DNA of 47,242 nt from a virus. Positions 2,173 through 33,512 of the stretch are shown here, in pieces. The position numbers and the translations under genes are program-made. The DNA is taken from the IMG/VR virus record IMGVR_UViG_3300010376_000014, positions 1 to 47,242 of that record; one strand, 5' to 3'. The stretch's first letter is position 1; each line of letters begins with the position of its first letter. The notes below the pieces were generated by a model. That model was not told the DNA's origin, searched no databases, and saw nothing but the letters and a program-made list of their open reading frames with translations.

Positions 2173-4233
2173 TCATTGGGGTTGGGCGCCGATGATGTTC
2201 GCTGGCGACATCCCACTGAACGCTGCCGGCGGCCCCTCTGGAACTTGTTGACCATTTGCACCAGGCTGTACTGGAGTTGAACCATTCTGACTTGGTTGCT
2301 GTCCCTGCATCTGCGCAGCGTTCATGGCCTGCTGCTCTTCGTAATACGTGTGCTCCTGATCATGTTGCTCGAAGAGCTGCTGGATATCCTGTGATAGCTC
2401 CATAAAGTCAGCAGACTTCATGAAATTTCGGTGTACGTAGTGATGAGCGGGATGATTGTACCACTCCTTGACACCAGGATCCTCACCTGCTTGGAGAATG
2501 TGGTTTTCACGCTCCGCTTGGTCGAGATCAACCTCCCACTCATCTGGATCGCCCTCGGACAATTCAAGCATCTGCCTAACTTTCCTCGGGTCCTGCTCGA
2601 TTTTGCGATCCCACAAGTCCAAAATGTACTGCTGTTTCGCCGCCTTGGAGCGAGGCAGCGCCGATCCCGCTTGAACGACGACCGACGCTGCCCCGGCGAG
2701 CATAGAGCCTTGAAAGTCGATGATCTCAATATCGCTGTGGTTCTTGTATATAGCCACAGTTCTGGGAGTGGTGTATTTCTCCGCCATCAACCTCAGCATG
2801 GCATATGCTACGTTTTCGCAGACTTCCTCGAATTCTTGGACTGTGGTTCCGATCCTGGTGTCGTCTTCTTCTTGGAGGTACGCGATAGCAACTCCCGAAC
2901 GCGCGCCAGGAGGGACCTTTCCCTGCGATGTTTCTCCTTGTCCTGAGATTTCGAGGATATGTTGCTTGAGAATCTCGACAAGATCTGAGACATACTTCGG
3001 CATCTCCGGCATCGTCACTGGTTCCGGCTTCGGAACATTCGGCATGAAGTTGTATTCAATCCTCATGCCTGGCTTATTCTGAATCTCCTTTGTGACCTGG
3101 AGTTGCTTTGGAATCAACCACGGCGGATTCGCCATGAGATTCCTATTCTCTAGCATTTGAGACTCAGTTTTCGACAGTTCGAGAACCGGGCCCTTCAGTC
3201 CAGTCAGAATCGATAGTGGCCACTGAGAAATTGGGAATGGGACGTGACCCATCATGTAGACTGGTAGATCATACTCCCACGCCGTCTTCTTCAGGATAGT
3301 GTCCTTGTTGAAGATCAGGCAGAGTCCGTCGGGGAACTTTGGGTGACCGGGTTTGATCCACATCTGGTGAATGATAGCCAGACGTTGAACATGGGTAGGT
3401 CTAGTTGCCAATTTACCCGTGAGATCGAATCGACCCATGAGACGCTGTTCGATGATACCCGGAAGCGCATTGGTGTCAGGATTGACCACCACACCCCATC
3501 GACGAAAGACCTCCTCCACGTCAAATACAGTGGAGTATATACACCACCAAGCATCGTCGATGTAGTTGACGCTAAAGTCCCATAGTATCTCGAATGGACT
3601 GACTTCTTTGACAATGATCTCTCCATTTGGAATCTTGTGATAGGTTGGCTTCCTACCTTGTTGATCCAGTTCTTGCTTGTAGAGCTCAATGGCGCGTGGG
3701 TCGAATATGGGATTGCCACTATCGTCCACTAGGACGTCGATCTGTCCTAGTTTCGTGTCGTCCCAATCGACAAGTGTCCCACCAAGGCCACAGGTAAGAA
3801 CCCACATGAGCATGTGGCGTCGAACTCGTGGCATGTGGAACTCACGCTCGGCGTAGTTGTTGAGGAGTTTGTCCCCAACCTTCGCAGAGTTCAGGTCGCT
3901 TTGATCGGACGAGCGCGCCAATACGTCCATGATCGGCCGGTTCTTCATGAGCTTCGCGAGCTCTGTGCGAATCGCGGGTTGGGCGAGATTGATCGGGACT
4001 CTTACGCGATGGTCGGGGCGTTTCACTGGCTCGTAGAGCCGACGCTTGTGTATGTCCCACTCGACCCAGAAATCGCCCATATACACAGCGAGGTTCTCCC
4101 ACCACATGCCCTCCCAGTGACGGCGACGTCCTAGTCCTTCCGTATGAAGAGACTGCGCCCAGTGCAGGAGCTTCTTGTCAGTCTCCGATGTGGGCGGCCC
4201 TTTGGCCTGTGGATTGTTTTCTGGTGTAGACAT
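2173..4233 (-). CDS. Portal protein (686 aa)
   Basis: Size and position upstream of scaffold and capsid. Acidic/Q-rich C-terminal tail, as is common in portals. No family motif could be verified without a search. Confidence 0.7.
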   Translation of the reverse strand: MSTPENNPQAKGPPTSETDKKLLHWAQSLHTEGLGRRRHWEGMWWENLAVYMGDFWVEWDIHKRRLYEPVKRPDHRVRVPINLAQPAIRTELAKLMKNRPIMDVLARSSDQSDLNSAKVGDKLLNNYAEREFHMPRVRRHMLMWVLTCGLGGTLVDWDDTKLGQIDVLVDDSGNPIFDPRAIELYKQELDQQGRKPTYHKIPNGEIIVKEVSPFEILWDFSVNYIDDAWWCIYSTVFDVEEVFRRWGVVVNPDTNALPGIIEQRLMGRFDLTGKLATRPTHVQRLAIIHQMWIKPGHPKFPDGLCLIFNKDTILKKTAWEYDLPVYMMGHVPFPISQWPLSILTGLKGPVLELSKTESQMLENRNLMANPPWLIPKQLQVTKEIQNKPGMRIEYNFMPNVPKPEPVTMPEMPKYVSDLVEILKQHILEISGQGETSQGKVPPGARSGVAIAYLQEEDDTRIGTTVQEFEEVCENVAYAMLRLMAEKYTTPRTVAIYKNHSDIEIIDFQGSMLAGAASVVVQAGSALPRSKAAKQQYILDLWDRKIEQDPRKVRQMLELSEGDPDEWEVDLDQAERENHILQAGEDPGVKEWYNHPAHHYVHRNFMKSADFMELSQDIQQLFEQHDQEHTYYEEQQAMNAAQMQGQQPSQNGSTPVQPGANGQQVPEGPPAAFSGMSPANIIGAQPQ

Positions 4234-8230: not shown

Positions 8231-8596
8231 TCACGCCGCCTCAGGACTCTTTGAGGCGGTCTTGGCGAGCACGCGCGATCTGGCCGCTGCTCCCTCTCGT
8301 ATCTTCTCAAGATCTCCTTCAGCCACCGATAATAGCTCGGTGGTACGATCAAGATCGGCACGTAGATCTGCATTTTCTGCGACGACTCGATCATAGGATG
8401 ACCTCGGTTCTCTGTCGATAAGGTCAGCAATCAGTTCAGCACACTCCCAACAAGTGTAGACCGAATTGCCCCAATCGACGTCCACCCCTTCTGAGAAGAT
8501 AGCCTTCATTTGGTTGCCGTGAGTATCGGAGGGATTGTTACCACAATGGATGCAGTGGTAGGGTTGCTCTGCCATGCCATTCACGACTTTGAACAT
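8231..8596 (-). CDS. Hypothetical protein with CxxC...CxxC metal-binding-like motif (121 aa)
   Basis: YHCIHCGN...YTCWEC. TAATG overlap with the terL stop. Confidence 0.55.
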   Translation of the reverse strand: MFKVVNGMAEQPYHCIHCGNNPSDTHGNQMKAIFSEGVDVDWGNSVYTCWECAELIADLIDREPRSSYDRVVAENADLRADLDRTTELLSVAEGDLEKIREGAAARSRVLAKTASKSPEAA

Positions 8597-10041
8597 TACG
8601 CCTCGGCTCCTAGCATCGAGTGGGCGCCCTCTCGACTTTGTCGTCTGTCCATACGCTCCCGCACTCGCGCCCAGTAACGTGCAGCGGGCGTGTTTGCGTC
8701 CTCGCTAGCCACAGGAAGTGACGGATGAGGCCGTGTCATCAGTATATAGCCCATCGCATCAACATCGTGGTCATCCTTCTCACGCGGTCTCTCTTTTGCG
8801 TCCTCGTCCGCGGTGACAGGTTGGCGCTTCCATTGGTACTGCTTTATGTGCTCGATCAGATTGACGCAGTTTTTGAAGATGTACAATCTTGGCCACCCCT
8901 CGTCCCGGTACTCCTGTGTAAGTGGGTGTGGATGATCTGGGTCGAGCATTAGCCATTCAGCTACACGGTTGATTCGTGCCGGAACATGACGATCGGATGG
9001 TATAGTTGAGATACCATGATCCCAGTACTCATCTATGACGCTACGCCCGGTGTTCGGATCCTTATGCGACGCGGAAGCATCGATGACCGTGTATATCGGG
9101 AGTTTGTAGCTGACACGAACCTCATGAATCCGCCGAGCGTGGTGAGCGACGAGTTGGAACGCCTCATAGTGCTCTTCAATGATAAAGCAGTTGCCATGTT
9201 CGTCGAAGGCCGCCCAGAGCACTGCGGTTGGATTACGCCGACCATGATCGATGCCCTCAATGAGGTCCCAATGGTCGGGTATTGGGAATGGGCGGACGGA
9301 GTGGATGTCTTCGTCAAACTCGGGCCATATCTGCCCTGAGAAGACATCCCACGAGCCCTCGACGAATCGCTTGACCCAAGACTCTGGCATCTTCAGCAGA
9401 CTGTTGATGTAGTCCTTAGGCAACATGGGATTGTCCGTGGTCTTTGCGTGGATCAAGCCACAATCTTTGTTGAGCTCTGGGCGATTGACGACTCTGTCCC
9501 ATATCCAATCGTGTCCATTAGGATTGGCCAAGATCATGCCGCATCGTGGCCCATTCGCCTGACGCAGACGACCACGAAGCATCATGAACATCTCCTCTGA
9601 CACCTCTTCTGCTTGATCGATCAAGAACCATGCGAGGTTCAGGTTGGTCAATTTCTGTGGCTCGTCGAGGGGCCAGAAGTGTATTTTCGAGCCATTTACG
9701 AGGGTCAGTAACTGATCCGTCTTGTGAAAGCTCCGTATGAGCTCCTGTGGGCACCCTGTGTAGTCCCCCTGATCCTCGTCACCGCCACCTCCGTGGAAGA
9801 ATGTCTCCATCGTTGTGGCCTTGAGCTCAGGACGAGTCTTGCGAGCAATAAGGCCGGTAGTACCAGGATACTCGATGGCGAGCATAAGAGCTTCTGCGCA
9901 TCCCGCCGACGTTTTGCCGTTGCCCCATCCGCCCACAAAGAATCGAAACCTCTTCGACATGCCATGGAACTCACCTTGTTTCGGCAGAGGTTGGTACTTG
10001 AGCTCAATCGAAATTGGCTCCGCTGAGGCTTGCATTTTCAT
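8596..10041 (-). CDS. terL: Terminase large subunit
   Basis: Walker A FFVGGWGNGKTSAG. About 480 aa. Start taken at ATG 10041, which forms an ATGA overlap with the upstream stop. The ORF-track start at 10152 would overlap the upstream gene by 115 nt. Confidence 0.85.
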   Translation of the reverse strand: MKMQASAEPISIELKYQPLPKQGEFHGMSKRFRFFVGGWGNGKTSAGCAEALMLAIEYPGTTGLIARKTRPELKATTMETFFHGGGGDEDQGDYTGCPQELIRSFHKTDQLLTLVNGSKIHFWPLDEPQKLTNLNLAWFLIDQAEEVSEEMFMMLRGRLRQANGPRCGMILANPNGHDWIWDRVVNRPELNKDCGLIHAKTTDNPMLPKDYINSLLKMPESWVKRFVEGSWDVFSGQIWPEFDEDIHSVRPFPIPDHWDLIEGIDHGRRNPTAVLWAAFDEHGNCFIIEEHYEAFQLVAHHARRIHEVRVSYKLPIYTVIDASASHKDPNTGRSVIDEYWDHGISTIPSDRHVPARINRVAEWLMLDPDHPHPLTQEYRDEGWPRLYIFKNCVNLIEHIKQYQWKRQPVTADEDAKERPREKDDHDVDAMGYILMTRPHPSLPVASEDANTPAARYWARVRERMDRRQSREGAHSMLGAEA

Positions 10042-10829
10042 GAGAATGGTCCAAGGTAGAACGCGGACAGGTGCGTCGTGGCGGAGAAGCCCTGGCTGGC
10101 GGTGTCGCTCCAGATGTTGAGATTCGCGACGTTGCCTGGGTTGCATGCCCAAACGAGCGACGCATGATGTCCCGAGAACTGCGTCGCTCCCGGACCGCCG
10201 ACCAGGTAGTCAGCGAGCAGCATCGAACCGCCGATGGTGATGCCCAGATATCTGTTGGCGGTACCGGCACTCGCTCGCTGCGACGCTTCGAGGAACCAAT
10301 TACCACCACGGTTGAGCGTGAGGCCGTTAGCCGCCGCTGTGCAATACGTACCTTGCTGCAGCTGAGTCCAGTTAGCGATCGCGACGCCGCCCACAACGGT
10401 CACATCGGATGGTGCAGACACCATGCCACGCACCTGGACGCGCTCGACCGGCTGACCCGAGGCGGTGTAGATGTGCCATCCGGATCGGTTGAACATGGCA
10501 AACCCACCGCTCGGTACCGAGATTGCGGTGGCTCCACCAATCCGGCCCTTGTTCGCACCGCCAGACGCGAACACGTTGACCGCAACCTGGATCGCAGTGC
10601 CTCCAAGGTTCAGTAGGCTGATGTAGTTGACGAGCGCCTGAATGTTCGCGGGGGGTCCAGCGTAGATCGAGTTCCATGCGTTTGCGGTACTGATCGTGGT
10701 GGATGCGAGGACCTGTGGGGTTGCCGGTCCGCCGCCAACGCCGAGGAGTTCGCCGCCGACGGTCGTGTACAGCGTTCCGGTGCCGCTGATATAGACCTGA
10801 AGGTTGTCGCCTGGTTGTAGGCCGATCAC
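10038..10829 (-). CDS. Tail fibre/receptor-binding-like protein (263 aa); N-terminal half paralogous to 10826..11176
   Basis: GTG 10829 overlaps the upstream TGA (GTGA). Shares the ...GGW-IY..-G motif and layout with the 116-aa ORF. Confidence 0.5.
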   Translation of the reverse strand: MIGLQPGDNLQVYISGTGTLYTTVGGELLGVGGGPATPQVLASTTISTANAWNSIYAGPPANIQALVNYISLLNLGGTAIQVAVNVFASGGANKGRIGGATAISVPSGGFAMFNRSGWHIYTASGQPVERVQVRGMVSAPSDVTVVGGVAIANWTQLQQGTYCTAAANGLTLNRGGNWFLEASQRASAGTANRYLGITIGGSMLLADYLVGGPGATQFSGHHASLVWACNPGNVANLNIWSDTASQGFSATTHLSAFYLGPFS

Positions 10830-13314: not shown

Positions 13315-14850
13315 TCAGTGCTCCTTCCCGCCACGCACGGCGAACTCGGCAACGTTGATGTAGAAGGGTATGCCGCCAGGAAGAGTACGGAACTGGATCT
13401 GATGGAACCTACCACGAGACTCAGGACGCACACGGGCAAATCTGTATTCGTTAGGTGGGTCCCATATACCAAATGGTTCGTTCCACATGTGTGGTGCATT
13501 GTTCCAAATATTGTCTCCAGTCACAGCAGGGTTCGGCAACGTTGCTGAGAAATCTGGTGCCTGATTGAAGTCCTTGAAAATGTCCACAATACAGTCACCA
13601 TATAGCTCTACATTCGCACGTCTGATCCGCTCGAATGGCTCCTCACCCTGGATTGCCATCCACGAACTCTTCCAATACGCATTGATCGGAGTGCCATCGT
13701 CCGTCTGACCCTGAAAAAGTTTGTACAACCTGGTCACATCAGCAGCCGACCCAATCACCACCCAGGGGCTGTGGCCATCTATGTTGACGTTGCACATGGC
13801 CTGAATCGCCATCGTGTGGATGAAGAATGCGGGTAGGAGGAGGTAGCGCCTACCACCAATACGTCGGAAGTTGATGTTCGGGATGTATTCGATGATGACG
13901 TTAGGCTTCCCGCTAGTGCTTGTGGTCGTAGTCACAGCTAGAAACATGCGTTGGTAGGAATCTCGTGTGCTTACGAGACGAGCAGTAGTTATGGCAGCAG
14001 AGTTCAGATTAGTTGGGAACCAGTTATTGATACTACCTGACTCATATGCTATAGCCACACCAGCCGTGGACCATAGGCCTTGCTGGTTGAACCAGTATAA
14101 CTTGGAATTCATCTCGGTGACCATGAATCTTCCAGCCACACCGGGGCGCCCCAGACGCCTGTTCGCCATCGTGGCGGAGTCGTTCATGACCCATACGGAC
14201 TCACGTTTGAAGAGATATAGCCTCGTTCCGAGCTCGGCCATATCGATGAATGAGTCCAACTCATCCTCAGGACCTCTCATATCGATGTAACCATAGGTGC
14301 CAGTGGTCGCTTCGGGGTCACCATACGGACTGAAGTAGACCCTTTGTGGATTAGCGGCCACACCAACCACGAACATGCGGTTACCGAAGACTTTGCATAG
14401 GTTCCCAGCCGGTGGTGTGCCTGCCCATGCAGATGTCCCTGAAGCCACACCATCCCACTTGAGTGGCGGGTCGACGCCGTTCATCATCCACACCATATCC
14501 CTGCCCGTGGCATCCGGGTACTGTGCGAAGCACCATACTGTGCCTGCTGTGCCTGTGGCTAATTGCTGCTGCACTCCGCCCATACTGCAGGCCACAACAC
14601 CGCCGTTGTAGGACAGCATGATCCATCGGATTGATGTGGACAGGACAATTTGCTGCATATTATCGGCATGCCCAGCCACAGCACCATTATCAAACTGCGT
14701 CTTGCCTTGTCGGACTCGCAACTGACCTACGAGGTCGCTGACTGTGACGTTCTGCAGGTCTGGGGACTCATTCGGTTGGAGATCGAACGGTCCGTCTCGA
14801 GTGTTCAGTCCGCCACGGAAGTTGTTGATGGGGACTCTCTGTAAGGGCAC
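13315..14850 (-). CDS. Large tail structural protein (511 aa), possibly a tubular/nozzle-type protein
   Basis: GTG start at 14850. N-terminus VPINNFRGGLNTRDGPFDLQPNESPDLQN resembles podovirus tail proteins from memory. Sits upstream of the fibres. Confidence 0.4.
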   Translation of the reverse strand: MPLQRVPINNFRGGLNTRDGPFDLQPNESPDLQNVTVSDLVGQLRVRQGKTQFDNGAVAGHADNMQQIVLSTSIRWIMLSYNGGVVACSMGGVQQQLATGTAGTVWCFAQYPDATGRDMVWMMNGVDPPLKWDGVASGTSAWAGTPPAGNLCKVFGNRMFVVGVAANPQRVYFSPYGDPEATTGTYGYIDMRGPEDELDSFIDMAELGTRLYLFKRESVWVMNDSATMANRRLGRPGVAGRFMVTEMNSKLYWFNQQGLWSTAGVAIAYESGSINNWFPTNLNSAAITTARLVSTRDSYQRMFLAVTTTTSTSGKPNVIIEYIPNINFRRIGGRRYLLLPAFFIHTMAIQAMCNVNIDGHSPWVVIGSAADVTRLYKLFQGQTDDGTPINAYWKSSWMAIQGEEPFERIRRANVELYGDCIVDIFKDFNQAPDFSATLPNPAVTGDNIWNNAPHMWNEPFGIWDPPNEYRFARVRPESRGRFHQIQFRTLPGGIPFYINVAEFAVRGGKEH

Positions 14851-15037
14851 GACGTGGATTTTATCTCTTTTAGCTTGGCTCGTTGGGGCCCCGCTAGCGT
14901 ACGACTAGGTGAGAGCTCCATTTTCTCCTCCCGCCAATGGGGAGCATCACTCATTTTCGCGCGACGTTGTTGTCCCGAACGCCACCGGGGTTGCGCGGGG
15001 GCCTTGAAAAAAGTGATGGCCAATGTGATCGGAAGAC

Positions 15038-15137
15038 GATCATATGATCACGCCATCACGCGATACGTGACGTGATGCATACCGTGACGTCATACAACTT
15101 GACGTAGGCGTCAATTGTCACGTGACGTGACGTGATG
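15038..15137. promoter_or_regulatory. Dense array of TGACGT-containing repeats and palindromes (candidate operator / pac / regulatory hub)
   Basis: TGACGT at 15068, 15085 (as TGACGTCA), 15100, 15123 and 15128. The 13-mer ACGTGACGTGATG occurs at 15065 and 15125. Palindromes GATCATATGATC (15038) and TTGACG-N4-CGTCAA (15099). Confidence 0.6.
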
Positions 15138-15193
15138 TGCCATACTCATGTTGTAGGTCATATCGCTTCAAGTGATCGGAGCCTAGCGCCACA

Positions 15194-15220
15194 TCACATA
15201 GCGAACATAACGGATCGCGC
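15194..15220. repeat. 27-bp perfect inverted repeat, left arm (TCACATAGCGAACATAACGGATCGCGC)
   Basis: Exact reverse complement of 15588..15614, checked base by base. Confidence 0.95.
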
Positions 15221-15242
15221 ATATCACGCAAAGGTGAATACA

Positions 15243-15560
15243 ATGGAATCCACGCAAGGTGATGTGCAGGCAGTAACGAATGACGTGCCGAAAGTGACGC
15301 CGAAGCCACGTAAGGCTAAGTCACCTGAGGTGACGTTTAGCAGTGTGATCAACGCCTATGCGAAGTCACGCAATATTGACACGACGCGCGCAGGCAAGGC
15401 AATCCGTAGCAAGATTCGCGCGATGGGTGACGCCGAAGTTGGTAAGGCATGGCCCGCTTTTCGTAAGTCTCAGAAGGTATTGCGTGACGGTAATCGTTAC
15501 CCGACCACAATGCCTCGCGCGTTCGCTGAGCAATTGCTCAAGGGACGTAGCGCGAAGTAA
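15243..15560 (+). CDS. Basic putative DNA-binding protein (105 aa)
   Basis: AAGGTGA Shine-Dalgarno 5 nt before the ATG at 15243. K/R-rich. The segment NIDTTRAGKAIRSKIR resembles the HTH of 19189..19746. Confidence 0.55.
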   Translation: MESTQGDVQAVTNDVPKVTPKPRKAKSPEVTFSSVINAYAKSRNIDTTRAGKAIRSKIRAMGDAEVGKAWPAFRKSQKVLRDGNRYPTTMPRAFAEQLLKGRSAK

Positions 15561-15587
15561 CGCAGTAACTATCCTGTAGTACACATC

Positions 15588-15614
15588 GCGCGATCCGTTA
15601 TGTTCGCTATGTGA
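15588..15614. repeat. 27-bp perfect inverted repeat, right arm
   Basis: Exact reverse complement of 15194..15220. Confidence 0.95.
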
Positions 15615-15636
15615 CAATCACAACGAAAGGTGACAA

Positions 15637-15738
15637 ATGATACACATAGCACATATCGCCATCATGGTAGGCGGAATTTCTTACTTTTTGTGGCATTACG
15701 TGATTAGTAGCATTATCGAAGTGTGGCGTGATAAGTGA
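15637..15738 (+). CDS. Small hydrophobic peptide (33 aa, MIHIAHIAIMVGGISYFLWHYVISSIIEVWRDK)
   Basis: Hand translation. GAAAGGTGA Shine-Dalgarno before the ATG. Single TM-like stretch. Its 3' end lies inside the hairpin 15722..15748. Confidence 0.35.
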   Translation: MIHIAHIAIMVGGISYFLWHYVISSIIEVWRDK

Positions 15739-15748
15739 TCACGCCACA
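15722..15748. terminator. 11-bp stem hairpin (TGTGGCGTGAT-AAGTG-ATCACGCCACA), no U-tract
   Basis: Read directly. Located at the end of the plus-strand cassette. Confidence 0.4.
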
Positions 15749-15909
15749 TCATCCGCTCGCGGCCCGACCACGTCGGGTCGAGAGTGGTTAGCTGACTGCC
15801 CGGCCGACTTCCATAGAACCAACTTGCGGTGGGCAGGCCGCCTATACTTCGTATAGGGCCAACTTCCAAGGACAGTCGCAGAGCCAACCCCACACTTGCA
15901 GTGGGCAAA

Positions 15910-16359
15910 CTACTCGTCTACGACTGTTGCGTCCACAACGTCTTCAGTCTCAAACGTAGGCCTAGGCGCCACAAACTTTATCGAGATCTCACCAGAATGC
16001 TCATGTTTGATCCGTGGATTGTGCACACCCGTGGCTTCGAGAAGTAGCTTGATCGCCTGGACGTTGCGCTGCCACGCACGTCTCGACAATGCCTGGCCAG
16101 CCTTGGGAAGGCCGACCACCATCTCCAATCGAGTCTCATCGAAGATGCCTGCGGCCACACGGTCATCATATAGGGCTGCGTGGCGAAGTTGCTTGTAGCA
16201 TTGGTTCCGCTTGCGAGCATTGTCGGGATATAGACGTCTCGCAATCGCCCTGGGATGGTTTCCTGCTGATATGGCGCGAATCAGGCCGTCTACCTGACCA
16301 TCCGTAAGCGTTGGGAACGCTTTTAGAGTCTTTGTCAACGCCATATCGGCCACCACCAT
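15910..16359 (-). CDS. Possible terminase small subunit / DNA-binding protein (149 aa)
   Basis: First gene of the minus-strand arm. HTH-like N-terminus. C-terminal AIKLLLEATGVHNPRIKHEHSGEISIKF resembles the tail of Terminase_2-type small subunits from memory. Confidence 0.4.
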   Translation of the reverse strand: MVVADMALTKTLKAFPTLTDGQVDGLIRAISAGNHPRAIARRLYPDNARKRNQCYKQLRHAALYDDRVAAGIFDETRLEMVVGLPKAGQALSRRAWQRNVQAIKLLLEATGVHNPRIKHEHSGEISIKFVAPRPTFETEDVVDATVVDE

Positions 16360-16440
16360 AATTTATCACATCCTAATCAGCTTGCGAAAGGTAGCAATTA
16401 GCAGGCCTTTTTATACCGCGGCATTTTTTTACCACATGAG

Positions 16441-16469
16441 TTGACCACAAGATCTCTGGATGCAACAAT
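16441..16469 (+). promoter_or_regulatory. Promoter P1: TTGACC - 17 nt (ending GGATGC) - AACAAT
   Basis: Spacing counted by hand. The 23-nt core GGATGCAACAATGAACGTGACGA is nearly identical to the cores at 17214 and 23167. Confidence 0.65.
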
Positions 16470-16518
16470 GAACGTGACGAAAACATCGTCCACATCGGTA
16501 AACCACGAAAGGGAAGCA

Positions 16519-21162: not shown

Positions 21163-22557
21163 TCAATCCCTTTTCTTCAACACTACGATCCACGGTTTGC
21201 GTCCCCCTACACGCGATGCCTGTCCCTCCTTCAGATCCAACATCAGAGACTTTTCTGCCCAACTCATAATCGTCTTTCGGGTCTTCTCGAATAGCTCCGC
21301 AAGCGCAGTCACACTCAATCCCTCATGCCTCGAGACATAGAACTCAAAGTCCGACATTGGTTCAGGCGCCTTTGTCTTCGATTCTTCTGTGACTGTAACT
21401 GCATAGCCTTCGCTACCTCCGACGTACTCTATCTCGAAGTCAGGGAAGGGCTCAAAGTTACGGAACTCACGTTCGACATGAGTAATGTAGGGTTCAGGCT
21501 TGCTAAGGTAAAGACCACACTCTACCCAAGCGTGGAACGCCTGACTACCGAGCATCCGTTGACCGCCGACTTTGGGGTTGTTAGCAGACGGCTTCGCGTA
21601 GTGGTGGATCAGCATGATCGAGCAACCCGTGAGTTCCTTCAACGCCTGCAGATTGAGCAGTATCGGACGCATGGACGAAGCGCTATTCTCATCTCCGGAA
21701 CCAAGCATCATCTGAAGCGGATCGAGAATAACAAGCTTTACTTCTCTGCTCACAATCTCATGTTGCAGGGCTTCCAGATCTGGAACGGAAGTGAGGTCGA
21801 ATTGCTTTCGACTGCGCACATACATCGGTATGGAGCTCGGGAATTTCACGGAGATACCACGTGGAGTTACGTCGATCTCCCCACCAAGTTCTTTACTGCG
21901 CGCGACCCACCGCATCCGTTTGTGTAACTCGGACGCTGACAGTTCCTCCTGGATGTACAACACAGGTAGTGCCTTCGGAACATCGAAGTACCCAAACACC
22001 TTGGTCCCTGTGGCTACAGACAGAGCAATATCGATGGCGAGCCATGACTTACGTACCTTCGGTTCGCCAGCCACAATACCGTGAGCCTGTTCGGACCATA
22101 GTCCCTGTATCATCCAACCGGGATCCTTTACCTCCCGAGCCAGAATCTTGTCGACTGATTCCGACCAGATCTCACGACGGGTTGCTCGACCATTGGTTGA
22201 TCGTCCGTCACCTGTGTCCACGGCGTGTAACCCCCAGGCCTTGAGGATGTCTCGCCGAAGCCGATTGATATCTCCACCGAACTTGTTCCAGCTTGAACAT
22301 TGCACAAGAGACTGTACCTCGAGCGGAGCCAAGCCGGATTGGAATAGAGCGAAATACAGGCGCCACATCGCCTTCGATCGGTCACCCTGGGGTTCACGAG
22401 AAAAGAGCCGCTCAAGTACGTACCGAGGAATGCGATCTCGATGGATCTCCAGAACTTGCTCAGCTTTCGGTATCTCACCTCCATCGTCTGTGACCTCGCC
22501 TCCAAGCTCACGCAGTTTTGGTAATTGCTTCAACAACTTCTTAGGATCTACGTCCAT
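21163..22557 (-). CDS. RepA/DnaB-like (AAA_25-type) replicative helicase (464 aa)
   Basis: Walker B-like KLVILDPLQMM. IMLIHHYAKPS motif. Degenerate Walker A GEPKVRKS. Start taken at MDVDPKK (ATG 22557). Confidence 0.7.
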   Translation of the reverse strand: MDVDPKKLLKQLPKLRELGGEVTDDGGEIPKAEQVLEIHRDRIPRYVLERLFSREPQGDRSKAMWRLYFALFQSGLAPLEVQSLVQCSSWNKFGGDINRLRRDILKAWGLHAVDTGDGRSTNGRATRREIWSESVDKILAREVKDPGWMIQGLWSEQAHGIVAGEPKVRKSWLAIDIALSVATGTKVFGYFDVPKALPVLYIQEELSASELHKRMRWVARSKELGGEIDVTPRGISVKFPSSIPMYVRSRKQFDLTSVPDLEALQHEIVSREVKLVILDPLQMMLGSGDENSASSMRPILLNLQALKELTGCSIMLIHHYAKPSANNPKVGGQRMLGSQAFHAWVECGLYLSKPEPYITHVEREFRNFEPFPDFEIEYVGGSEGYAVTVTEESKTKAPEPMSDFEFYVSRHEGLSVTALAELFEKTRKTIMSWAEKSLMLDLKEGQASRVGGRKPWIVVLKKRD

Positions 22558-23039
22558 AAAAGTTTGACCTTGGGTCGTAGCGGATATTTGTGGTTGATAG
22601 TTCCAGGTATGCGCAGCACCTGTGTCCGATCCCATCCTCCTTTGTCTGCACCGATTGCATAGGTCAGTCTTTGATTCAGCTCTGAGTGTTCTTGCGGTTG
22701 GCACTTCTGCGTCATTCGCCACAAACATTGGAAGCGATTGGGCGATGACTCCCACGCTGTTGTCGGACGTGGGTCCACGTATTCAGGATCCACATCGTCG
22801 AGGTCGGCATACAACCAAATCGATGGTAGCATGAGTTCCTTGCGACGTTTCGGACCTGAAAAGACATTCGGACAAAAGTACAGATCACCATCCACATTGG
22901 GTATCTCGACCTCGCCGCCTTTATTCTTCTTCCATGAGAACGCCACGTCATACCACGTGTCTTGCTTCACGGATACAAAGACGAAGCCCGTCGCGTTCTG
23001 CTCATCCCACACCATCTTGACAAAGTCAACCGGTTCCAC
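22548..23039 (-). CDS. Primase-polymerase (Prim-Pol/RepB'-like) domain protein (163 aa)
   Basis: LYADLDD (DxD) and VLRIPGTINHKY motifs. Overlaps the helicase start by 10 nt. Confidence 0.6.
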   Translation of the reverse strand: MEPVDFVKMVWDEQNATGFVFVSVKQDTWYDVAFSWKKNKGGEVEIPNVDGDLYFCPNVFSGPKRRKELMLPSIWLYADLDDVDPEYVDPRPTTAWESSPNRFQCLWRMTQKCQPQEHSELNQRLTYAIGADKGGWDRTQVLRIPGTINHKYPLRPKVKLLWT

Positions 23040-26478: not shown

Positions 26479-26794
26479 ACTGCAGAAAGAGCTCCACGAG
26501 TGGAGGATGTACAACTTTCCCGAGTGTACGCCCGAGGACCAATTCATGGGCATGGTCGAGGAAATGGGCGAGATTGCTCACGCTCTGCTCAAGACGAAGC
26601 AAGGCATCCGCATCGAGGACGAGATTCAGGGTCACGCCAAGGTCAGGGACGGCATCGCAGATCTAGTGATCTACACAATGGGACTATGCTCACTGATGGG
26701 ATGGGACCTCGAGGCTCTCGTCTCATCCGTGGCTAACAATGAGGTCATGCAACGCGACTGGATCAAATATCCGAAGGACGGCATGACCACATGA
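26471..26794 (+). CDS. mazG: MazG-like all-alpha nucleoside triphosphate pyrophosphohydrolase (107 aa)
   Basis: MGMVEEMGEIAHALLK...DGIADLVIYTMGL fits the EExxE...D layout of small phage MazG proteins. Confidence 0.7.
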   Translation: MRELQKELHEWRMYNFPECTPEDQFMGMVEEMGEIAHALLKTKQGIRIEDEIQGHAKVRDGIADLVIYTMGLCSLMGWDLEALVSSVANNEVMQRDWIKYPKDGMTT

Positions 26795-27168
26795 AAGACA
26801 CAGACTGGGCATACTTAGCTGGACTCATCGACGGAGAGGGATGCATTAGTACAGTGCATACTAATCCTCGTAATGGACAATTCAACGCCAAGATAGCTAT
26901 AGTGAACACAGACAAAACCGTCCTCGATTGGATAGTGAAAACATTCGCTGTGGGTAATGTGTATCCAAGACGCCTGAGGCTTCCCATGAAGCAATCATGG
27001 CGATGGCAACTGGCTGCAGGTTCGTCTGTTTCCCGCATCCTGAATGGGGTTTATCCGTATCTCATCATCAAGAAGGACCAAGCAGTACTCGCTATTGAAC
27101 TATGCTCTCGACCGGCAAAGCGCCGACAACTCGAGATCTACGGGGCACTTCGTGAGGCAAAGCGATGA
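26791..27168 (+). CDS. LAGLIDADG-family homing endonuclease (125 aa)
   Basis: Canonical YLAGLIDGEGC motif. ATGA overlaps at both ends. Visibly more A/T-rich than the flanks. Confidence 0.85.
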   Translation: MKDTDWAYLAGLIDGEGCISTVHTNPRNGQFNAKIAIVNTDKTVLDWIVKTFAVGNVYPRRLRLPMKQSWRWQLAAGSSVSRILNGVYPYLIIKKDQAVLAIELCSRPAKRRQLEIYGALREAKR

Positions 27169-28691: not shown

Positions 28692-28854
28692 TTGGGAAGC
28701 TGTCGCCTGTCCACACTGTGGTGCGAAGGTTGGAGAACATTGCAAGAATCCCGACGGATCGAAGTACCAATACGTCCACCGCAAGCGCTACGAGGCATAC
28801 GCGAAGGAGGCAGAGCATGCAGTTCGAGCAGATATACAACTCCCTCCTCGCTAA
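28678..28854 (+). CDS. Small Zn-finger protein (58 aa)
   Basis: CPHCGAKVGEHC. Overlaps the next gene by 38 nt. Confidence 0.45.
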   Translation: MTRPDWEAVACPHCGAKVGEHCKNPDGSKYQYVHRKRYEAYAKEAEHAVRADIQLPPR

Positions 28855-29587
28855 CGTGATCGAGGGCATGCCTGTGGATCGTGGCGAGTGGCACGCGAAG
28901 GACGTGCGTGGCATACCGAAGCTCGTGTCGTACGAGGTCAGAGACATCGCCTTCGATCTGTGGTGTCCGCCGACGATGGTGGAGCTGCAGGACGATTACA
29001 AGCCGAATCTGCCCTGGGCAGAGGATCACTTTCAGGAGCGAGTCAGTGGGCAACCCTTGAATCCCCCACCGTCGCATGCGTGGTGGCCCTTTGGCAATAC
29101 ACAGACCCACATGCAGGAAGGCAAGTTCAGCCACTCGTATCCCGAGCGGTATTGGCCCAAGCGTGCGGGGGCTCAGCGATACTCAGAGGAGCTAGGCGGT
29201 ATCCGATTCGAGTGGGGCGATCTCGATGATCTCGTGTCCTTGCTGAGTGAGCGTCCCATGACGCGACAAGCATACCTGCCTGTGTGGTTTCCTGAAGATC
29301 TGACAGCCGCTCGTGAGAAGGAGCGCTGTCCCTGCTCTTTGGGTTATCACTTTCTCGTGCATGAGGAACACAACGGACTGAGGATGGACTGTGCGTATTT
29401 CATGCGGTCTTGTGACTTCGTGCGGCACTTCAGGGACGATATGTATCTGACCGCCCGACTGATGCAGTGGGTCGGTGACAAGATCGAGATTCAACCATCG
29501 GAGCTACACGTCTACATCTCGTCACTCCACTGCATAGAGGGTGACCTCGACAATCTGAGGGAGGAGTATGAGAATCTCTCGCGATGA
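28817..29587 (+). CDS. Thymidylate synthase / dCMP hydroxymethylase family protein (256 aa)
   Basis: AAGGAGG Shine-Dalgarno. RQAYLPVWFPED, CPCSLGYHFLV, YFMRSCDFVRHFRDDMYL and SSLHCIEGD align by eye with T4 gp42 (NMRSNDVVFGFRNDYAW, GSLHVYSRH) and with ThyA. Confidence 0.65.
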   Translation: MQFEQIYNSLLANVIEGMPVDRGEWHAKDVRGIPKLVSYEVRDIAFDLWCPPTMVELQDDYKPNLPWAEDHFQERVSGQPLNPPPSHAWWPFGNTQTHMQEGKFSHSYPERYWPKRAGAQRYSEELGGIRFEWGDLDDLVSLLSERPMTRQAYLPVWFPEDLTAAREKERCPCSLGYHFLVHEEHNGLRMDCAYFMRSCDFVRHFRDDMYLTARLMQWVGDKIEIQPSELHVYISSLHCIEGDLDNLREEYENLSR

Positions 29588-30077
29588 CATGTTTCTCCGT
29601 GTGGCTGAAGTCATCGCGCTGCGCGGTACGTGTCCACGAGCCACAGTTGGAGCAGTGCTTGTCCGTCACGGACGCATCATTAGCATCGGGTACAATGGCG
29701 CCCCATCTGGGATGCCGCACTGCGAGGATGAGGGTTGCGACGTCCCATTTGCGGGAGGAGGATGCGTTCGAGCGATTCACGCAGAGACTAATGCGATACT
29801 CTGGGCAGCACGTGAGGGCGTCTCTACAGATCAAACTACGATGTATTGCACACATGCGCCCTGCGTCAACTGTGCCCTAACTGTGGCTATGGCGGGTATC
29901 ACTGAGTTTCATTATCTATATAACTACCGTGATCCTGGTGGATTGAAGATCCTTACCGACTACGACGTTGCACATTGGAGGCGGAGTGGAGCCGGATCAG
30001 TTGCAGATGCAGAAGATAGTGAGAGTGATGCAGCGGATCGAAATAGTAGTAATCTCTCAGACGGAAGAGGGATCTGA
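29568..30077 (+). CDS. dCMP deaminase (169 aa)
   Basis: Zinc-site motifs HAETNA and PCVNCA. Typical CMP/dCMP deaminase layout. Confidence 0.85.
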   Translation: MRISRDDMFLRVAEVIALRGTCPRATVGAVLVRHGRIISIGYNGAPSGMPHCEDEGCDVPFAGGGCVRAIHAETNAILWAAREGVSTDQTTMYCTHAPCVNCALTVAMAGITEFHYLYNYRDPGGLKILTDYDVAHWRRSGAGSVADAEDSESDAADRNSSNLSDGRGI

Positions 30078-30131
30078 GCGCGAGGTCGTGATTGACTCCA
30101 TCATTCGTCCGATTCCGATACCATACGAACA

Positions 30132-32504
30132 GTGAACTGGAGAGATCAAATCCGAGACAGTAAGTGCACAGCCTGTGGCTTGCATGAGAACGCCCAGTAC
30201 GTTTGCCTGATGGGGACAGGCAAACGTTCTTCTCGTCTCATGATTATCGGGGAGGCACCAGGTGCCCGAGAAGATGAAGAACACCGAGCCTTTGTGGGTC
30301 CCGCGGGGCAACTTCTCAACGATCTATTATCCGAAGTGGGGTTGTCTCGTGAAGATGCCTATATCTCAAACGCCGTCAAGTGTCGTCCGCCAAGCAACGA
30401 GACCCCAACGCGAGTCCATATCAAAGCGTGTGCGCAGTATCTCATCCGTGAGCTCGAGGAGGTAGAGCCTGAATATGTACTTGCTCTTGGCAATTCTGCG
30501 CTCCAAGCCCTTACCGGGAGATCTGGTATTACTAAGTATCGGGGGCGACTGCATAGTCTTGGAGGAACCCAGGTCCTCCCCACCTTTCACCCTGCAGCGG
30601 CGCTCCGATCTCCAAGGTATCTCCCGTCGATCAAGGCAGACTTTCGTGCGCTTGCCCGATACATGGATAACTCACACATGGGGAGTAATGGACTATCCAC
30701 ACGTGTCCGCATCATCCGTAATGCTGGACAACTCAGGTGGCTCATCAACCGCCTAGCCACAGCTGAGGTCATCGCGTTCGATCTGGAGACTACAGGGCTA
30801 AACGAGTTCGCGGAAGGAGCCAAGATTGTTACCCTCGGAGTCGCGTGGGAACCTGGTTGTGCTGCAGTCGTCCCACTTCATCACAGCGCAGGAACTTTTG
30901 CGGAACCTGCCAAGATCTTACATCAGCTCAAACCGGTTATGGAGAGAACAGACTGTCGTTACGTTGGGCATAACGCCAAGTTTGATACGAGATGGCTTGG
31001 ACGTTTCGGTATCTATACACCGACTTCCTTCGATACGATGCTTGCCTCCCACCTTCTCGACGAGAACGGACAACACGGACTCAAGCCCCTATCACAACTC
31101 CATCTCGGAGCTCTTGACTACGATATTGGGGATGATGTCAAGGACGCCTACAACACTAACCTAAAGCGACTTTGTATCTACAACGGAAAGGATTGTGACT
31201 ATACTTTACGACTATATCTTCGTCTTCGGGAAGAGCTCAAACAGCAGCCCCGTCTCGCAAGGCTCTTCACCCGACTCACCATGCCTGCTAGTCGTGCTCT
31301 GCTACGAGTTGAAGTTGCTGGGCTTCAAGTGAATACCGACAGGCTCATCAACAGGGCTAAGGAGACAGAATACAAGATCCTGAAATGCAAGAACTACATG
31401 GACCAATACGTGCCGGAAGATATGAAACCAATCAACTACAACTCTCCAGCACAGATTGGCCTGTGGCTATTCGGTTCGATGGGGCTGCCTATACTTGAGA
31501 GGACCAAGAGTGGGGCGCCATCGACCCGTGAGGCAGTGCTATTCCAACTCGCGAAGCAGCATAAGGCAGTCGAGGTCCTGTTGCGCTATCGGAAGTGGTC
31601 CAAGTATTACTCCACTTACATCACGGCATGGGCTGAGGCTATTGATCCAAGAGGACGTCTTCACACTTCTTACCTCTTGCATGGAACTGTCACCGGACGA
31701 CTATCCAGCCGCAATCCAAATCTCCAACAAGTCCCACGGGACCCGTTTATACGCGGCATTCTCGGAGCACCGCTCGGATGGAAGTTTGTCGAAGCTGATT
31801 ATTCGCAGGTTGAGTTGAGGATAGCAGCCATGATCGCACAGGAAAGAAGCATGTTACGGCTATTCGCTCTCGGGGAAGATATACATATGAGCACCGCATG
31901 CTTCATGACAGGAAAGATCCCAGCGCAGGTCACGAGTGAGGAACGGAAGAAAGCGAAAGCCGTCAACTTCGGCTTCCTTTATGGCATGGGTGCTCAGAAG
32001 TTCGTGACCTACGCACGGGACAGTTATGATGTGGAGGTTACCCTTGCTGAAGCAGAAAAGGTCAGAGACCGTTTCTTTGAACGGTATCCACGTCTACGCA
32101 CGTGGCATGATAGACAGCGAAGACTCGCAACGAGATACGGTCGAGTGCAGTCGCCTCTTGGGCGGATACGGCACTTGCCAGATGTGCGGTCGACAGATTC
32201 AGACGTACGTGCTGAGTCGGAACGACAGGCTATCAATTCGCCCGTCCAGTCCTTTGCGAGTGATCTCATGCTCGTGTCCCTTACACGGCTGGATCGCGCC
32301 TTCCCTAACAACGTGGCGCGCACCGTAGGATCAGTGCACGATGCTCTGCTCTTCGAGGTTAGAGAGCAATACGTGGATGAAGTGTGTGCCAAGATCAAGG
32401 AGGTTATGGAGGATACAGACTACGTAAAGAAAGTATTTGGAACCGAGATTACAGTGCCGATCGAAGTCGAGATAAAGGTCAGCGATCATTGGGGCGAGTC
32501 ATGA
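30132..32504 (+). CDS. polA: Fusion: family-4 uracil-DNA glycosylase-like domain + 3'-5' exonuclease + family A DNA polymerase (790 aa)
   Basis: UDG4: CTACGL...GEAPG...KCRPP...FHPAAALR. Exo: FDLETTGL, HNAKFD, YNGKDCDY. Pol: DYSQVELR, RKKAKAVNFGFLYGMG, SVHDALLFEV. Confidence 0.9.
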   Translation: MNWRDQIRDSKCTACGLHENAQYVCLMGTGKRSSRLMIIGEAPGAREDEEHRAFVGPAGQLLNDLLSEVGLSREDAYISNAVKCRPPSNETPTRVHIKACAQYLIRELEEVEPEYVLALGNSALQALTGRSGITKYRGRLHSLGGTQVLPTFHPAAALRSPRYLPSIKADFRALARYMDNSHMGSNGLSTRVRIIRNAGQLRWLINRLATAEVIAFDLETTGLNEFAEGAKIVTLGVAWEPGCAAVVPLHHSAGTFAEPAKILHQLKPVMERTDCRYVGHNAKFDTRWLGRFGIYTPTSFDTMLASHLLDENGQHGLKPLSQLHLGALDYDIGDDVKDAYNTNLKRLCIYNGKDCDYTLRLYLRLREELKQQPRLARLFTRLTMPASRALLRVEVAGLQVNTDRLINRAKETEYKILKCKNYMDQYVPEDMKPINYNSPAQIGLWLFGSMGLPILERTKSGAPSTREAVLFQLAKQHKAVEVLLRYRKWSKYYSTYITAWAEAIDPRGRLHTSYLLHGTVTGRLSSRNPNLQQVPRDPFIRGILGAPLGWKFVEADYSQVELRIAAMIAQERSMLRLFALGEDIHMSTACFMTGKIPAQVTSEERKKAKAVNFGFLYGMGAQKFVTYARDSYDVEVTLAEAEKVRDRFFERYPRLRTWHDRQRRLATRYGRVQSPLGRIRHLPDVRSTDSDVRAESERQAINSPVQSFASDLMLVSLTRLDRAFPNNVARTVGSVHDALLFEVREQYVDEVCAKIKEVMEDTDYVKKVFGTEITVPIEVEIKVSDHWGES

Positions 32505-33271
32505 TCAGCGTCTTCACTCCCTCCCACAATCCCCTGTGGCTAGATCAATGTCACGAGAGCCTGAGGACCCAGACACTATGGGATTGGGAATGGATCGTGT
32601 TGCTCAACGGTGACGCGGAGTGGGAGTGTGACGATCCCCAGGTCCGGATATATCGGTTCCCACGATCAGGTACGGTTGGACTCATGAAAGCTGTGGCCTG
32701 TACGCACGCTTCTGGCAGTATCTTGGTCGAGCTAGATCATGACGATGTACTTCTGCCTGACGCACTGATGGAAATAGACCGAGCGTTCAGTGAGAATCCG
32801 ACAGCCACACTCGTGTACAGCGACTTCGCCCAAATGTTCGAGGATGGTACGCCGGATGAATCAGATTTCGACTTGAGGAATGGATGGGAGTCAACACCGG
32901 AGTACTATGAGGGACAAACGTATAAGCGCTGGCGTGCTCCCAAGCCGTGGCCCGTGAATGTTGGACTGATCTGGTTCGCGCCTAATCATATCCGCGCGTT
33001 CCGCACATCTACCTACCACGAGGTCGGTGGGTACGACCCCAACAGACGTGTGCTCGACGATCAAGATCTGATGATGCGGCTGTATATGAGAGGACCATTT
33101 ATCCACATCGACAGACTACTGTACTTGGTCAGGGTACATGACGGCAACACTCAAAAAGACCCCGAGCTCAATGCTCAGATCCAATGGGAGACAGTTCAAA
33201 TGTATTGCCAACAGAGGGAGGCACTCCATTTGGCATATATGTCTCATAACGGGTTGATACAATTACAGTGA
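32501..33271 (+). CDS. Family 2 (GT-A) glycosyltransferase (256 aa)
   Basis: MISVFTPSHNPLWLDQCHESLRTQT...LVELDHDDVLLPDAL (DxD). ATGA overlap with the polA stop. Confidence 0.75.
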   Translation: MISVFTPSHNPLWLDQCHESLRTQTLWDWEWIVLLNGDAEWECDDPQVRIYRFPRSGTVGLMKAVACTHASGSILVELDHDDVLLPDALMEIDRAFSENPTATLVYSDFAQMFEDGTPDESDFDLRNGWESTPEYYEGQTYKRWRAPKPWPVNVGLIWFAPNHIRAFRTSTYHEVGGYDPNRRVLDDQDLMMRLYMRGPFIHIDRLLYLVRVHDGNTQKDPELNAQIQWETVQMYCQQREALHLAYMSHNGLIQLQ

Positions 33272-33287
33272 AACAGAGGTCACAGGG

Positions 33288-33512
33288 ATGGCGAAGGTCA
33301 ATAGGACAAAGAGGATTCTCGCTGGGAGGATGCTCCTAGTAGCGTTCCACCACATCAATGCGATGAGGACCGTGTTGTGGCTAGAGGACTTGAACGCTCT
33401 GGGTCTGACTCCTAGTGAGAAAGAAAAGTTGGCAGATATCAATAAGCGAGTCAATGACATAGCTAACGAGGTCAGGGCAATGGGATGGAAAATCAACCGT
33501 GAGAATCTCTAA
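33288..33512 (+). CDS. Hypothetical protein (74 aa)
   Basis: ORF track. Confidence 0.5.
   Translation: MAKVNRTKRILAGRMLLVAFHHINAMRTVLWLEDLNALGLTPSEKEKLADINKRVNDIANEVRAMGWKINRENL

Follow-up and report, generated by a model that had tools for sequence, protein, structure and literature searches.

The virus record IMGVR_UViG_3300010376_000014 of the IMG/VR database was analyzed over positions 1–47,242 as one window of 47,242 nucleotides (nt). At the edge of its minus-strand structural genes lies a small plus-strand cassette, which consists of a gene for a basic protein of 105 amino acids (aa) and a gene for a hydrophobic peptide of 33 aa, and the first of these genes is enclosed by a perfect inverted repeat, the element with which this analysis is concerned. 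Positions 1–123 and 47120–47242 of the window are identical (123 bases), so that the window represents a circularly closed assembly of approximately 47.1 kb. The cassette is flanked on one side by a 511-aa minus-strand tail gene that starts at 14850, and on the other by a convergently oriented gene for a 149-aa protein (Table 1). For comparison, the cassette locus was collected from 13 distinct lineages comprising 29 contigs (the window and relatives labeled with L numbers, such as L001), which are assemblies from many independent samples. The contigs of this clade are about 45–48 kb long and belong to uncultured phages, several of them from soil samples; related contigs of 45–48 kb begin at differing points of the gene order. 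IMG/VR contained two contigs only, both of one lineage.

The inverted repeat in the window

The two arms of the repeat are complementary at 27 of 27 positions and are separated by 367 nt. Even with three mismatches allowed, TCACATAGCGAACATAACGGATCGCGC is found in the window at the two arm positions only (0 of 100 shuffles), and the pair is the sole perfect long inverted repeat of the 47-kb window, the others being 70–94% complementary. The repeat is far beyond chance. An earlier annotation made from the letters of the same DNA, hereafter the sequence-only reading, had described a perfect 27-bp repeat around the first open reading frame (ORF), with each arm 20–30 nt upstream of one of the two starts, and a basic and a hydrophobic product that are each preceded by a Shine-Dalgarno (SD) sequence of the AAGGTGA type. 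All of this is confirmed, with both arms ending 23 nt before an ATG, an isoelectric point (pI) of 10.7 for the basic protein, and a grand average of hydropathy (GRAVY) of 0.91 for the peptide. Each arm is followed by one copy of a direct repeat in which (A)TCACG(CGA) precedes the AAGGTGA, and the combination of TCAC and SD is found at only 4 of the 54 other putative genes in the window.

Conservation of the pairing across lineages

A search of related genomes for the same repeat-flanked unit, which the sequence-only reading had proposed, recovered it in 12 of the 13 lineages. In each of these, the longest inverted repeat of the locus brackets the homolog of the 105-aa gene (the family gene) with arms of 24–32 nt. 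The order of the locus is constant and comprises the tail gene on the minus strand, the family gene on the plus strand, zero to three small plus-strand genes, and, as far as the contigs extend, a minus-strand gene for a protein of 146–152 aa. Relative to these genes the right arm shifts, being placed after gene 1, 2, or 4, and it is always intergenic and within the plus-strand unit. The left arm agrees with the reverse complement of the right arm at 86–100% of positions in its own lineage and at 35–65% in other lineages. When the 200 nt upstream were aligned locally with the reverse-complemented 750 nt downstream, the scores were 16–27 on the diagonal and 9.7 ± 1.9 off the diagonal, a control that retains composition and shared motifs. 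Watson-Crick pairs are formed at 308 of the 338 arm positions, and two or more Watson-Crick pair types occur at all helix positions (24/24). The divergence of the arms is about that of third codon positions or synonymous sites. Since the position of the arms was kept and their sequence turned over with complementarity kept, selection acts on the pairing itself. Single nucleotide polymorphisms among near-identical contigs (0 in 60 arm nt versus 1.3 expected) are too few to matter here.

Some features of the arms are common to several lineages, namely a central block GTGCA(A/G)ACACC versus GTGCAGGCATC in L001, L005, and L012, and a G·G mismatch in L025 and L028. Such lineage-shared mismatches beside covarying arm positions argue against a simple homogenization or gene conversion of the arms. 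The only lineage without the long-range repeat is L011, which has no 5′ arm and a shorter 5′ untranslated region (UTR) from which the left-arm region is deleted. Between its family gene and a gene for a 42-aa membrane peptide, exactly at the right-arm position of close relatives, L011 possesses a local G+C-rich hairpin of 23 bp (positions 952–1001 of L011; free energy, ΔG, −49.9 kcal/mol; z score −4.2), so that the trait retained at this site of the message is an extended duplex. Relatives that lack the repeat and keep the genes, which the sequence-only reading had named as evidence against its proposal, thus occur once, but the right arm is replaced there by the local hairpin.

The repeat is kept in L009 and L027 though no gene follows the right arm, and in L019, L022, L025, and L028 with only non-hydrophobic small genes at this place. 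The tight control of a toxin-like peptide, one option of the sequence-only reading, thus lacks support as an account of the repeat. Control of the hok/sok type (type I toxin-antitoxin) is unsupported on the same observations and because the downstream genes are unrelated between lineages.

Transcriptional setting and predicted folding

From the putative extended −10 element of the window (Table 1) a transcription start near 15153 is predicted, which would place the left arm within a 5′UTR of approximately 90 nt. In relatives, sigma-70-like promoter motifs of the plus strand are found 47–90 nt upstream of the left arm; the TGcCATACT of the window aligns only with CATACT, GATACT, or CATGCT of L001, L006, and L011 and not with the strong sites of the relatives. 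Beyond the right arm the window has two tandem hairpins, of which the first (15721–15749) covers the stop codon of the peptide gene, and at their position canonical terminators with a hairpin and a U tract are present in L009, L011, L025, L027, and L028. Hairpin and U tract follow 13–45 nt after the right arm in L009, L025, L027, and L028, so that the right arm lies in the 3′UTR there; in the window and its closer relatives it is intercistronic. Given the plus-strand promoter motifs ahead of the left arm and, in relatives, the terminators past the right arm, both arms would belong to one plus-strand transcript.

From the end of the left arm to the start codon of the family gene, the distance is 22–36 nt (142 nt in L028, the exception), and the arms lie 17–36 nt before start codons in most relatives. 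The SD is never overlapped by either arm, and in the window a gap of 10–12 nt separates the arms from both SDs. This spacing does not agree with the translational lock in the form given by the sequence-only reading. RNAfold includes the helix in the minimum-free-energy structure predicted for every lineage, with mean pair probabilities of 0.73–1.0 and a duplex ΔG of −30 to −63 kcal/mol, and no significant alternative local structure was found in the 5′UTR (z −1.1 to 0.0). No Rfam family matched the sequence across 14700–16500.

Two side observations concern the surroundings of the arms. Within the 33-aa ORF, at 15645–15652, the outer end of the arm, CACATAGC, occurs a third time; through it, an unpaired right arm could form a local fold of 13 pairs across SD2 and the AUG, a structure that is not significant against shuffles (z −0.55). 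The TCAC of the module after each arm can base-pair with GGTGA in the SD and also resembles the ...GAUCACCUCC... 3′ end of 16S rRNA, and distant relatives keep TCACGCGA after the right arm even without a following gene (L025, approximately 3492–3501; L027, approximately 3374–3383; L028, approximately 3872–3881).

Table 1. Features of the cassette locus in the window, promoter motifs of relatives, and the inverted repeat in each lineage that carries it.
Feature	Position or lineage	Strand	Details
TGACGT/GTGAY motif array	15065–15136		putative operator-like region
Putative extended −10 promoter element TGcCATACT	15138–15146	+	read from the sequence; predicted start near 15153
Left (5′) arm	15194–15220	+	TCACATAGCGAACATAACGGATCGCGC; its end lies 10 nt from SD1 and 23 nt from the start codon (ATG) of the 105-aa gene
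Module ATCACG then SD AAGGTGA, copy 1	15223–15237	+	SD1 at 15231–15237, before the 105-aa gene
105-aa basic protein gene	15243–15560	+	pI 10.7; unannotated family
Conserved motif CCTGTAGTACACA	15573–15585	+	directly precedes the right arm; shared by the window, L001, and L010, nearly so by L012; looser versions in the other lineages
Right (3′) arm	15588–15614	+	left arm in exact reverse complement; its end lies 12 nt from SD2 and 23 nt from the start codon (ATG) of the 33-aa gene
Module ATCAC and SD AAGGTGA, copy 2	15617–15633	+	SD2 at 15627–15633, before the 33-aa gene
33-aa hydrophobic peptide gene	15637–15738	+	GRAVY 0.91; one predicted membrane helix
Two tandem G+C-rich hairpins	15721–15749, 15753–15787	+	12-bp and 15-bp stems; z −5.9; candidate terminator without U tract
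149-aa gene	15910–16359	−	convergent with the cassette; no family assigned
Promoter motif TTGACA-17-TATAGT	L025, L028	+	two scans agree
Promoter motif TTGACA-17-GATACT	L019	+	one scan
Promoter motif TTGACA-16-TATTGT	L022	+	one scan
Promoter motif TTGACG-18-TATCAT	L009	+	two scans agree
Promoter motif TTGACC-17-GATACT	L005	+	one scan
Inverted repeat	window		27/27 pairs; 367 nt, one gene enclosed
Inverted repeat	L001 group		27/30 pairs; arms 559 nt apart, with one additional ORF enclosed (two genes in all)
Inverted repeat	L005		29/32 pairs
Inverted repeat	L006 group		28/32 pairs
Inverted repeat	L009		24/28 pairs
Inverted repeat	L010		26/27 pairs
Inverted repeat	L012		25/28 pairs
Inverted repeat	L019		24/27 pairs
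Inverted repeat	L022		28/30 pairs
Inverted repeat	L025		24/27 pairs; two genes enclosed
Inverted repeat	L027		23/26 pairs
Inverted repeat	L028		23/24 pairs; 969 nt, four genes enclosed

A putative long-range mRNA helix and its alternatives

The covariation of the arms, the upstream promoter motifs of the plus strand, and the terminators of the relatives are best fitted by a duplex in the plus-strand RNA, possibly of the RNase III type, which was among the options offered by the sequence-only reading. We give an even chance to the explanation that the repeat forms a long-range mRNA helix, in which the 5′UTR pairs with intercistronic or 3′UTR sequence, and that this helix is an RNase III-type processing site or a stability element. 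Transcription would start at the sigma-70-like promoter ahead of the left arm, which would thereby become part of the 5′UTR of the basic-protein gene. Downstream in the same RNA would follow the right arm, which the window has behind gene 1 and relatives have behind gene 2, behind gene 4, or immediately ahead of the terminator. As soon as the right arm has been transcribed, the near-perfect helix of 24–32 bp would close the enclosed coding region into a loop; because it stops short of the ribosome-binding sites, a direct block of initiation would not be expected. A near-perfect duplex of 24–32 bp is the kind of substrate on which the double-strand-specific RNase III acts, and cleavage by this enzyme would remove the leader and separate the enclosed message from the downstream small gene or genes. 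The enclosed mRNA would be left with both ends clamped, which could determine how stable it is and how strongly it is expressed compared with the downstream genes. The presence of this transcript, helix formation in vivo, cleavage by RNase III, and the sign of the expression effect are the steps that we infer. A helix with this function would explain why the constraint lies on pairing only and not on sequence.

Several observations weigh against this explanation. In the window, two promoter scans, one of which required a −35 box, gave no candidate, and no canonical U-tract terminator follows the cassette. Read on the plus strand, the arm mismatches comprise 13 G·U, 12 A·C, and 5 others, a small sample that is uncorrected for kinship; the signature expected of RNA, in which G·U is tolerated and A·C is avoided, is thus absent. 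Conserved A·C mismatches are common to L001, L005, L012, and L010, and G·U is carried by L006 and L009. Moreover, the helix folds equally well on the minus strand. The GTGACG-type motif of the operator-like array also occurs within the inner arm parts of several lineages, which makes a DNA-level role for part of the arms possible. With the substitution signature of RNA lacking, membership of the helix in the class of RNase III sites is not claimed as proven.

Other functions of the pairing could likewise be exerted in RNA. The 3′ arm might be an antisense regulator of the 5′UTR of the basic-protein gene, acting in cis or as a released short RNA, and would then constitute a specificity lock. 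The fast co-divergence of the arms, with near-neutral turnover and complementarity kept, could reflect selection for lineage-specific control as in the c4-ant system discussed below; in L009, the arm is followed by an intrinsic terminator 13 nt further on and looks similar to a small RNA, and a conserved motif is found just upstream of the right arm. This lock is nevertheless unlikely, since the scans revealed no promoter-like match upstream of the right arm, the arms miss both ribosome-binding sites, unlike the targets of c4, L011 manages without a 5′ arm, and a duplex unconstrained in sequence would drift likewise. The helix could also act on minus-strand read-through from the 149-aa gene towards the tail genes, as a processing site that removes antisense RNA, or on both strands. 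It folds on the minus strand as well as or better than on the plus strand, the conserved mismatches of L001, L005, L010, and L012 are A·C on the plus and G·U on the minus strand, and the lack of an overall strand bias is compatible with use of both. We regard this function as quite improbable, however, because the mismatches of L006 and L009 are G·U on the plus and A·C on the minus strand, in L009 the right arm is separated from the 149-aa gene by a bidirectional terminator, and the promoter and terminator motifs that flank the arms are those of the plus strand. An initial assignment of the mismatches to the minus strand, drawn from the L001 group with its G·U on that strand only, was dropped, as L006 and L009 behave in the opposite way and the overall count is 13 versus 12. 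There is also a small chance that the repeat represents a novel phage cis-element, either a duplex that is free in sequence, strict in pairing, and used on both transcripts of the convergent early/late junction, or a lineage-specific RNA lock. If used on both transcripts, it would cut the basic-protein message from the plus-strand RNA and its antisense from the minus-strand read-through, and the rapid co-divergence would give each lineage a private control; the mismatch spectrum without strand preference would then be explained.

At the level of DNA, the arms might be recombination partners, either for an inversion of the segment as a flip-flop switch or with their identity maintained through gene conversion by a recombination module of the phage. 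An identity that requires no particular sequence suits homologous recombination, and the mismatch spectrum shows no strand asymmetry (13 versus 12). Among the products of the window are a PD-(D/E)XK nuclease and an AAA_24 protein (33499–35218) that may form a recombination module, judging from their domain types, and the inverted gene, with its own SD, would point along the minus-strand genes. However, the enclosed segment has a single orientation relative to both flanking minus-strand genes in 29 of 29 assembled contigs and all 13 lineages, and Pfam and PHROGs searches of approximately 55 ORFs, some small ORFs being outside the scan, detected neither a serine or tyrosine recombinase nor an integrase, a reverse transcriptase, or an RNase III, although a host enzyme could take over the task. 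Conversion would furthermore erase the cross-lineage mismatches that are kept beside covarying positions, a local hairpin replaces the pair in L011, and arms of 24–32 bp are short for homologous recombination. We therefore consider recombination improbable, and the argument of the sequence-only reading against DNA inversion, which had relied on the missing recombinase gene, holds and is strengthened by the uniform orientation. A retron-like a1/a2 stem was rejected, no reverse transcriptase being present among the scanned ORFs. Just as improbable is a function of the arms as paired DNA sites that a single regulator would bind, be it the 105-aa protein, the 149-aa protein, or a factor of the host, and that would loop with the TGACGT/GTGAY array and shut the cassette promoter. 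Such sites, also put forward by the sequence-only reading, would find a counterpart in the 8-fold enrichment of GTGAY over the locus, in the location of such motifs in the promoter spacer, in the single GTGAY motif at the outer end of each window arm, and in the GTGACG-like sequence in the inner arms of L001, L010, L022, L025, L027, and L028. Yet an exact mutual complementarity over 24–32 bp would be superfluous for binding, most of each arm is outside any shared motif, and the local hairpin of L011 is not equivalent to a pair of distant sites. Furthermore, the arms are only 35–65% alike, whereas the 105-aa proteins of close lineages are 62–85% identical (L009 54%) and the 149-aa proteins up to 59%, and this near-random divergence of the arms, while the candidate binding proteins retain 56–85% identity, makes operators a poor fit. 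That the arms are terminal inverted repeats of a non-autonomous element similar to a miniature inverted-repeat transposable element (MITE), which brought the gene in, is hardly credible: the 27-bp arms around a short transposase-free segment bear a superficial likeness to such elements, but the pair is single-copy in the window, no target-site duplication is found at the arm ends, the syntenic position is the same in every lineage, and the arm sequences are unconserved, contrary to what recognition by a transposase would demand. Finally, the arms were rejected as outward- or inward-facing promoters; the arm is found nowhere else in the genome, and a promoter sequence would be conserved.

Comparison with known systems

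In the icaR mRNA of Staphylococcus aureus, pairing between the 5′ and 3′UTR creates an RNase III substrate, and the UCCCCUG motif involved pairs with the SD region (PMC3868564), while in the hbs mRNA of Bacillus subtilis a 14-bp pairing of the 5′UTR with the 3′UTR modulates RNase action (PMC5737220). The phage repeat is similar in that complementary segments are located on either side of one coding region in a single predicted mRNA, and in L009, L025, L027, and L028 the 3′ arm likewise lies in the 3′UTR just before the terminator. There are, however, clear differences: the pairings of icaR and hbs are short, whereas the phage helix has 24–32 bp and is nearly perfect; the icaR duplex covers the SD, whereas the phage arms stop at least 10 nt short of it and hence do not mask it; and the phage helix often closes before downstream cistrons and not at the end of the mRNA. 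In addition, the phage helix is known here from covariation across a clade and not from experiment.

Long-range RNase III stems flank the 16S and 23S rRNA in rRNA operons, and local RNase III hairpins lie between the early cistrons of phage T7. As in the rRNA stems, the phage duplex is long, is formed from both sides of a functional unit, and is free to drift in sequence if pairing is kept. If the repeat is a processing helix of the RNase III type, it would also share with the rRNA and T7 sites the separation of polycistronic units and the stabilization of the products by their paired ends, and the local hairpin of L011 resembles an intercistronic site of the T7 type. In contrast to the rRNA stems, the bracketed unit in the phages consists of one, two, or four protein-coding genes, and cleavage is presumed; the T7 sites are local hairpins with internal loops, unlike the long-range helix of these phages. 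Invertible DNA segments (Hin, Gin, and Cin systems, fimS, and Bacteroides-type invertons) have inverted repeats of about 20–30 bp that flank a few hundred bp. The phage repeat has similar dimensions and also lies next to tail-fiber genes, but it differs by the lack of a detected recombinase, by the one orientation in 29 contigs, and by arm sequences that are unconserved among relatives. Phages P1 and P7 have an antisense immunity, c4-ant, in which the processed small RNA c4 has targets that overlap a ribosome-binding site. Here as there, complementary segments within one transcription unit differ between related phages and yet are matched, but the arms described here avoid the ribosome-binding sites, and there is no indication of a separate small RNA.

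New here is the comparative evidence for a long-range duplex that is conserved in its pairing on an unannotated phage gene; its mechanism is probably of a familiar type. To our knowledge, few structured regulatory RNAs have been described in phage messages and long-range ones are fewer still, cultured models being dominant. The present duplex of 24–32 bp was found by comparative sequence alone in a clade of uncultured phages, where it survives complete sequence turnover and is always tied to the same unannotated gene for a small basic protein at the structural/early junction. Should it be a helix for RNA processing or stability, it would extend the 5′–3′ pairing of icaR and hbs and the excision stem of the rRNA type to protein-coding cassettes of phages, and its natural compensatory variants would provide a clean system for how such helices set expression.

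Genes of the cassette

Compared with its relatives, the 105-aa gene has 37–43 differences at third codon positions and 7–20 at positions 1 and 2, a bias which indicates that the ORF is a real gene whose protein is under purifying selection. The protein has seven close relatives of 53–81% identity and is a member of a family whose proteins, 75–130 aa long, form more than 180 clusters, all of them from metagenomic assemblies and encoded on phage-like contigs where the context was read; several members are located on contigs of 45–48 kb. The conserved core of the family reads VTFSSVI..YAK..IDTTRAGKAIRSKIRA...RDGNRYP..MP. Two long matches of a representative search were rejected as repeat-protein artifacts (one PPR, one Ig-like). 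Pfam, PHROGs, and NCBIfam as well as a profile search of PDB yielded nothing of use, the sole database matches being phrog_19132 (E value 0.007, function unknown) and a spurious one to LolE, and the label "HTH-like" (helix-turn-helix) of the sequence-only reading is supported by no family match. An AlphaFold2 model (predicted local distance difference test, pLDDT, 72) had no significant Foldseek match. Among the first ten PDB entries ranks 1–8 were HU proteins, but with E values of at least 0.17 and template modeling (TM) scores of 0.28–0.47, and an identity as HU/IHF was rejected in view of a probability of 2.3% in hhalign against an HU/IHF alignment and no Pfam match. For this small basic protein, nucleic-acid binding is probable.

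Deposited phages showed no DNA similarity to the region and no tblastn match to the 105-aa protein; among them, only the DNA polymerase has relatives (41–46% identity). In GTDB genomes, protein patterns of the 105-aa family gave no match, and a degenerate DNA pattern for RDGNRYP..MP retrieved chance motifs only, one of them within an alpha-amylase-like ORF.

The 33-aa peptide has a homolog in L001 (common W.YVI..IIE..R.K). Its position is occupied by unrelated small membrane peptides in L005, L006, L011, and L012, and in distant lineages by unrelated acidic small proteins or by no gene. The convergent 149-aa gene is syntenic in every lineage whose contig extends to it (146–152 aa). Its product is predicted to have an N-terminal helical region and C-terminal strands, and carries a conserved C-terminal motif, GVHNPR..HEHSGEI.IK, with the invariant form G.HNP...HEH.GE...PRP; this histidine-rich motif might bind metal. 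The designation "terS-like", which the sequence-only reading had given to this gene, lacks support, as Pfam, PHROGs, and NCBIfam gave no match and neither did PDB when searched with a profile of 15 sequences; a single-sequence AlphaFold2 model had a pLDDT of 57 and hence was not used.

Non-coding motifs around the cassette

The TGACGT array noted in the sequence-only reading is present in 6 copies between 15068 and 15133, and similar TGACGT(CA) arrays are found in all relatives. In the spacer of the putative plus-strand promoter, tandem pentamers GTCAC-GTGAC-GTGAC-GTGAT occupy 15117–15136, and the density of GTGAY/RTCAC is 38 per kb in 15000–15760 compared to 4.6 per kb genome-wide. The GTGAY array is taken to be an operator array for some regulator, and the 105-aa family with its motif-rich surroundings probably represents a regulatory center of these phages.

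Upstream of the 511-aa tail gene, the non-coding stretch 14851–15000 is strongly conserved in all lineages, far above the remaining intergenic region. It contains the conserved elements GTCCCGAACGCCmCCGkG, GCCAA..GGGG, and CTAGGTGAGAGCTCCA, and is a candidate for a late promoter or leader. Where the cassette and the 149-aa gene converge, the intergenic stretch 15790–15905 contains GGCCRAC(T)(T)C in two to four direct copies, together with ACTTGCrGTGGGCA repeats. Such repeats occur at the same position in L005, L006, L009, L011, L022, and L027, that is, in most lineages that cover the region, and are possible protein-binding sites or a possible packaging site.

Genomic context

The minus-strand structural block, whose edge is formed by the 511-aa tail gene, includes the genes for the large terminase subunit (8596–10152), portal, and endolysin as well as collagen-like and collar tail-fiber genes. 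From 16441 onwards follows a plus-strand block of small early-type ORFs and replication genes, among them a helicase and DNA polymerase A; a primase-like gene inside this block (21163–22755) is on the minus strand. The cassette marks the junction of the two divergent blocks and is separated from the plus-strand block by the 149-aa gene only, so that its placement "inside the late operon", as the sequence-only reading had it, is not borne out. Among the replication genes, a LAGLIDADG-like ORF (26791–27168) has a borderline Pfam match. A thymidylate-synthase-like gene, a dCMP deaminase, and a family-2 glycosyltransferase are clustered around the DNA polymerase (28718–33271), which suggests that the DNA of this phage contains modified bases.

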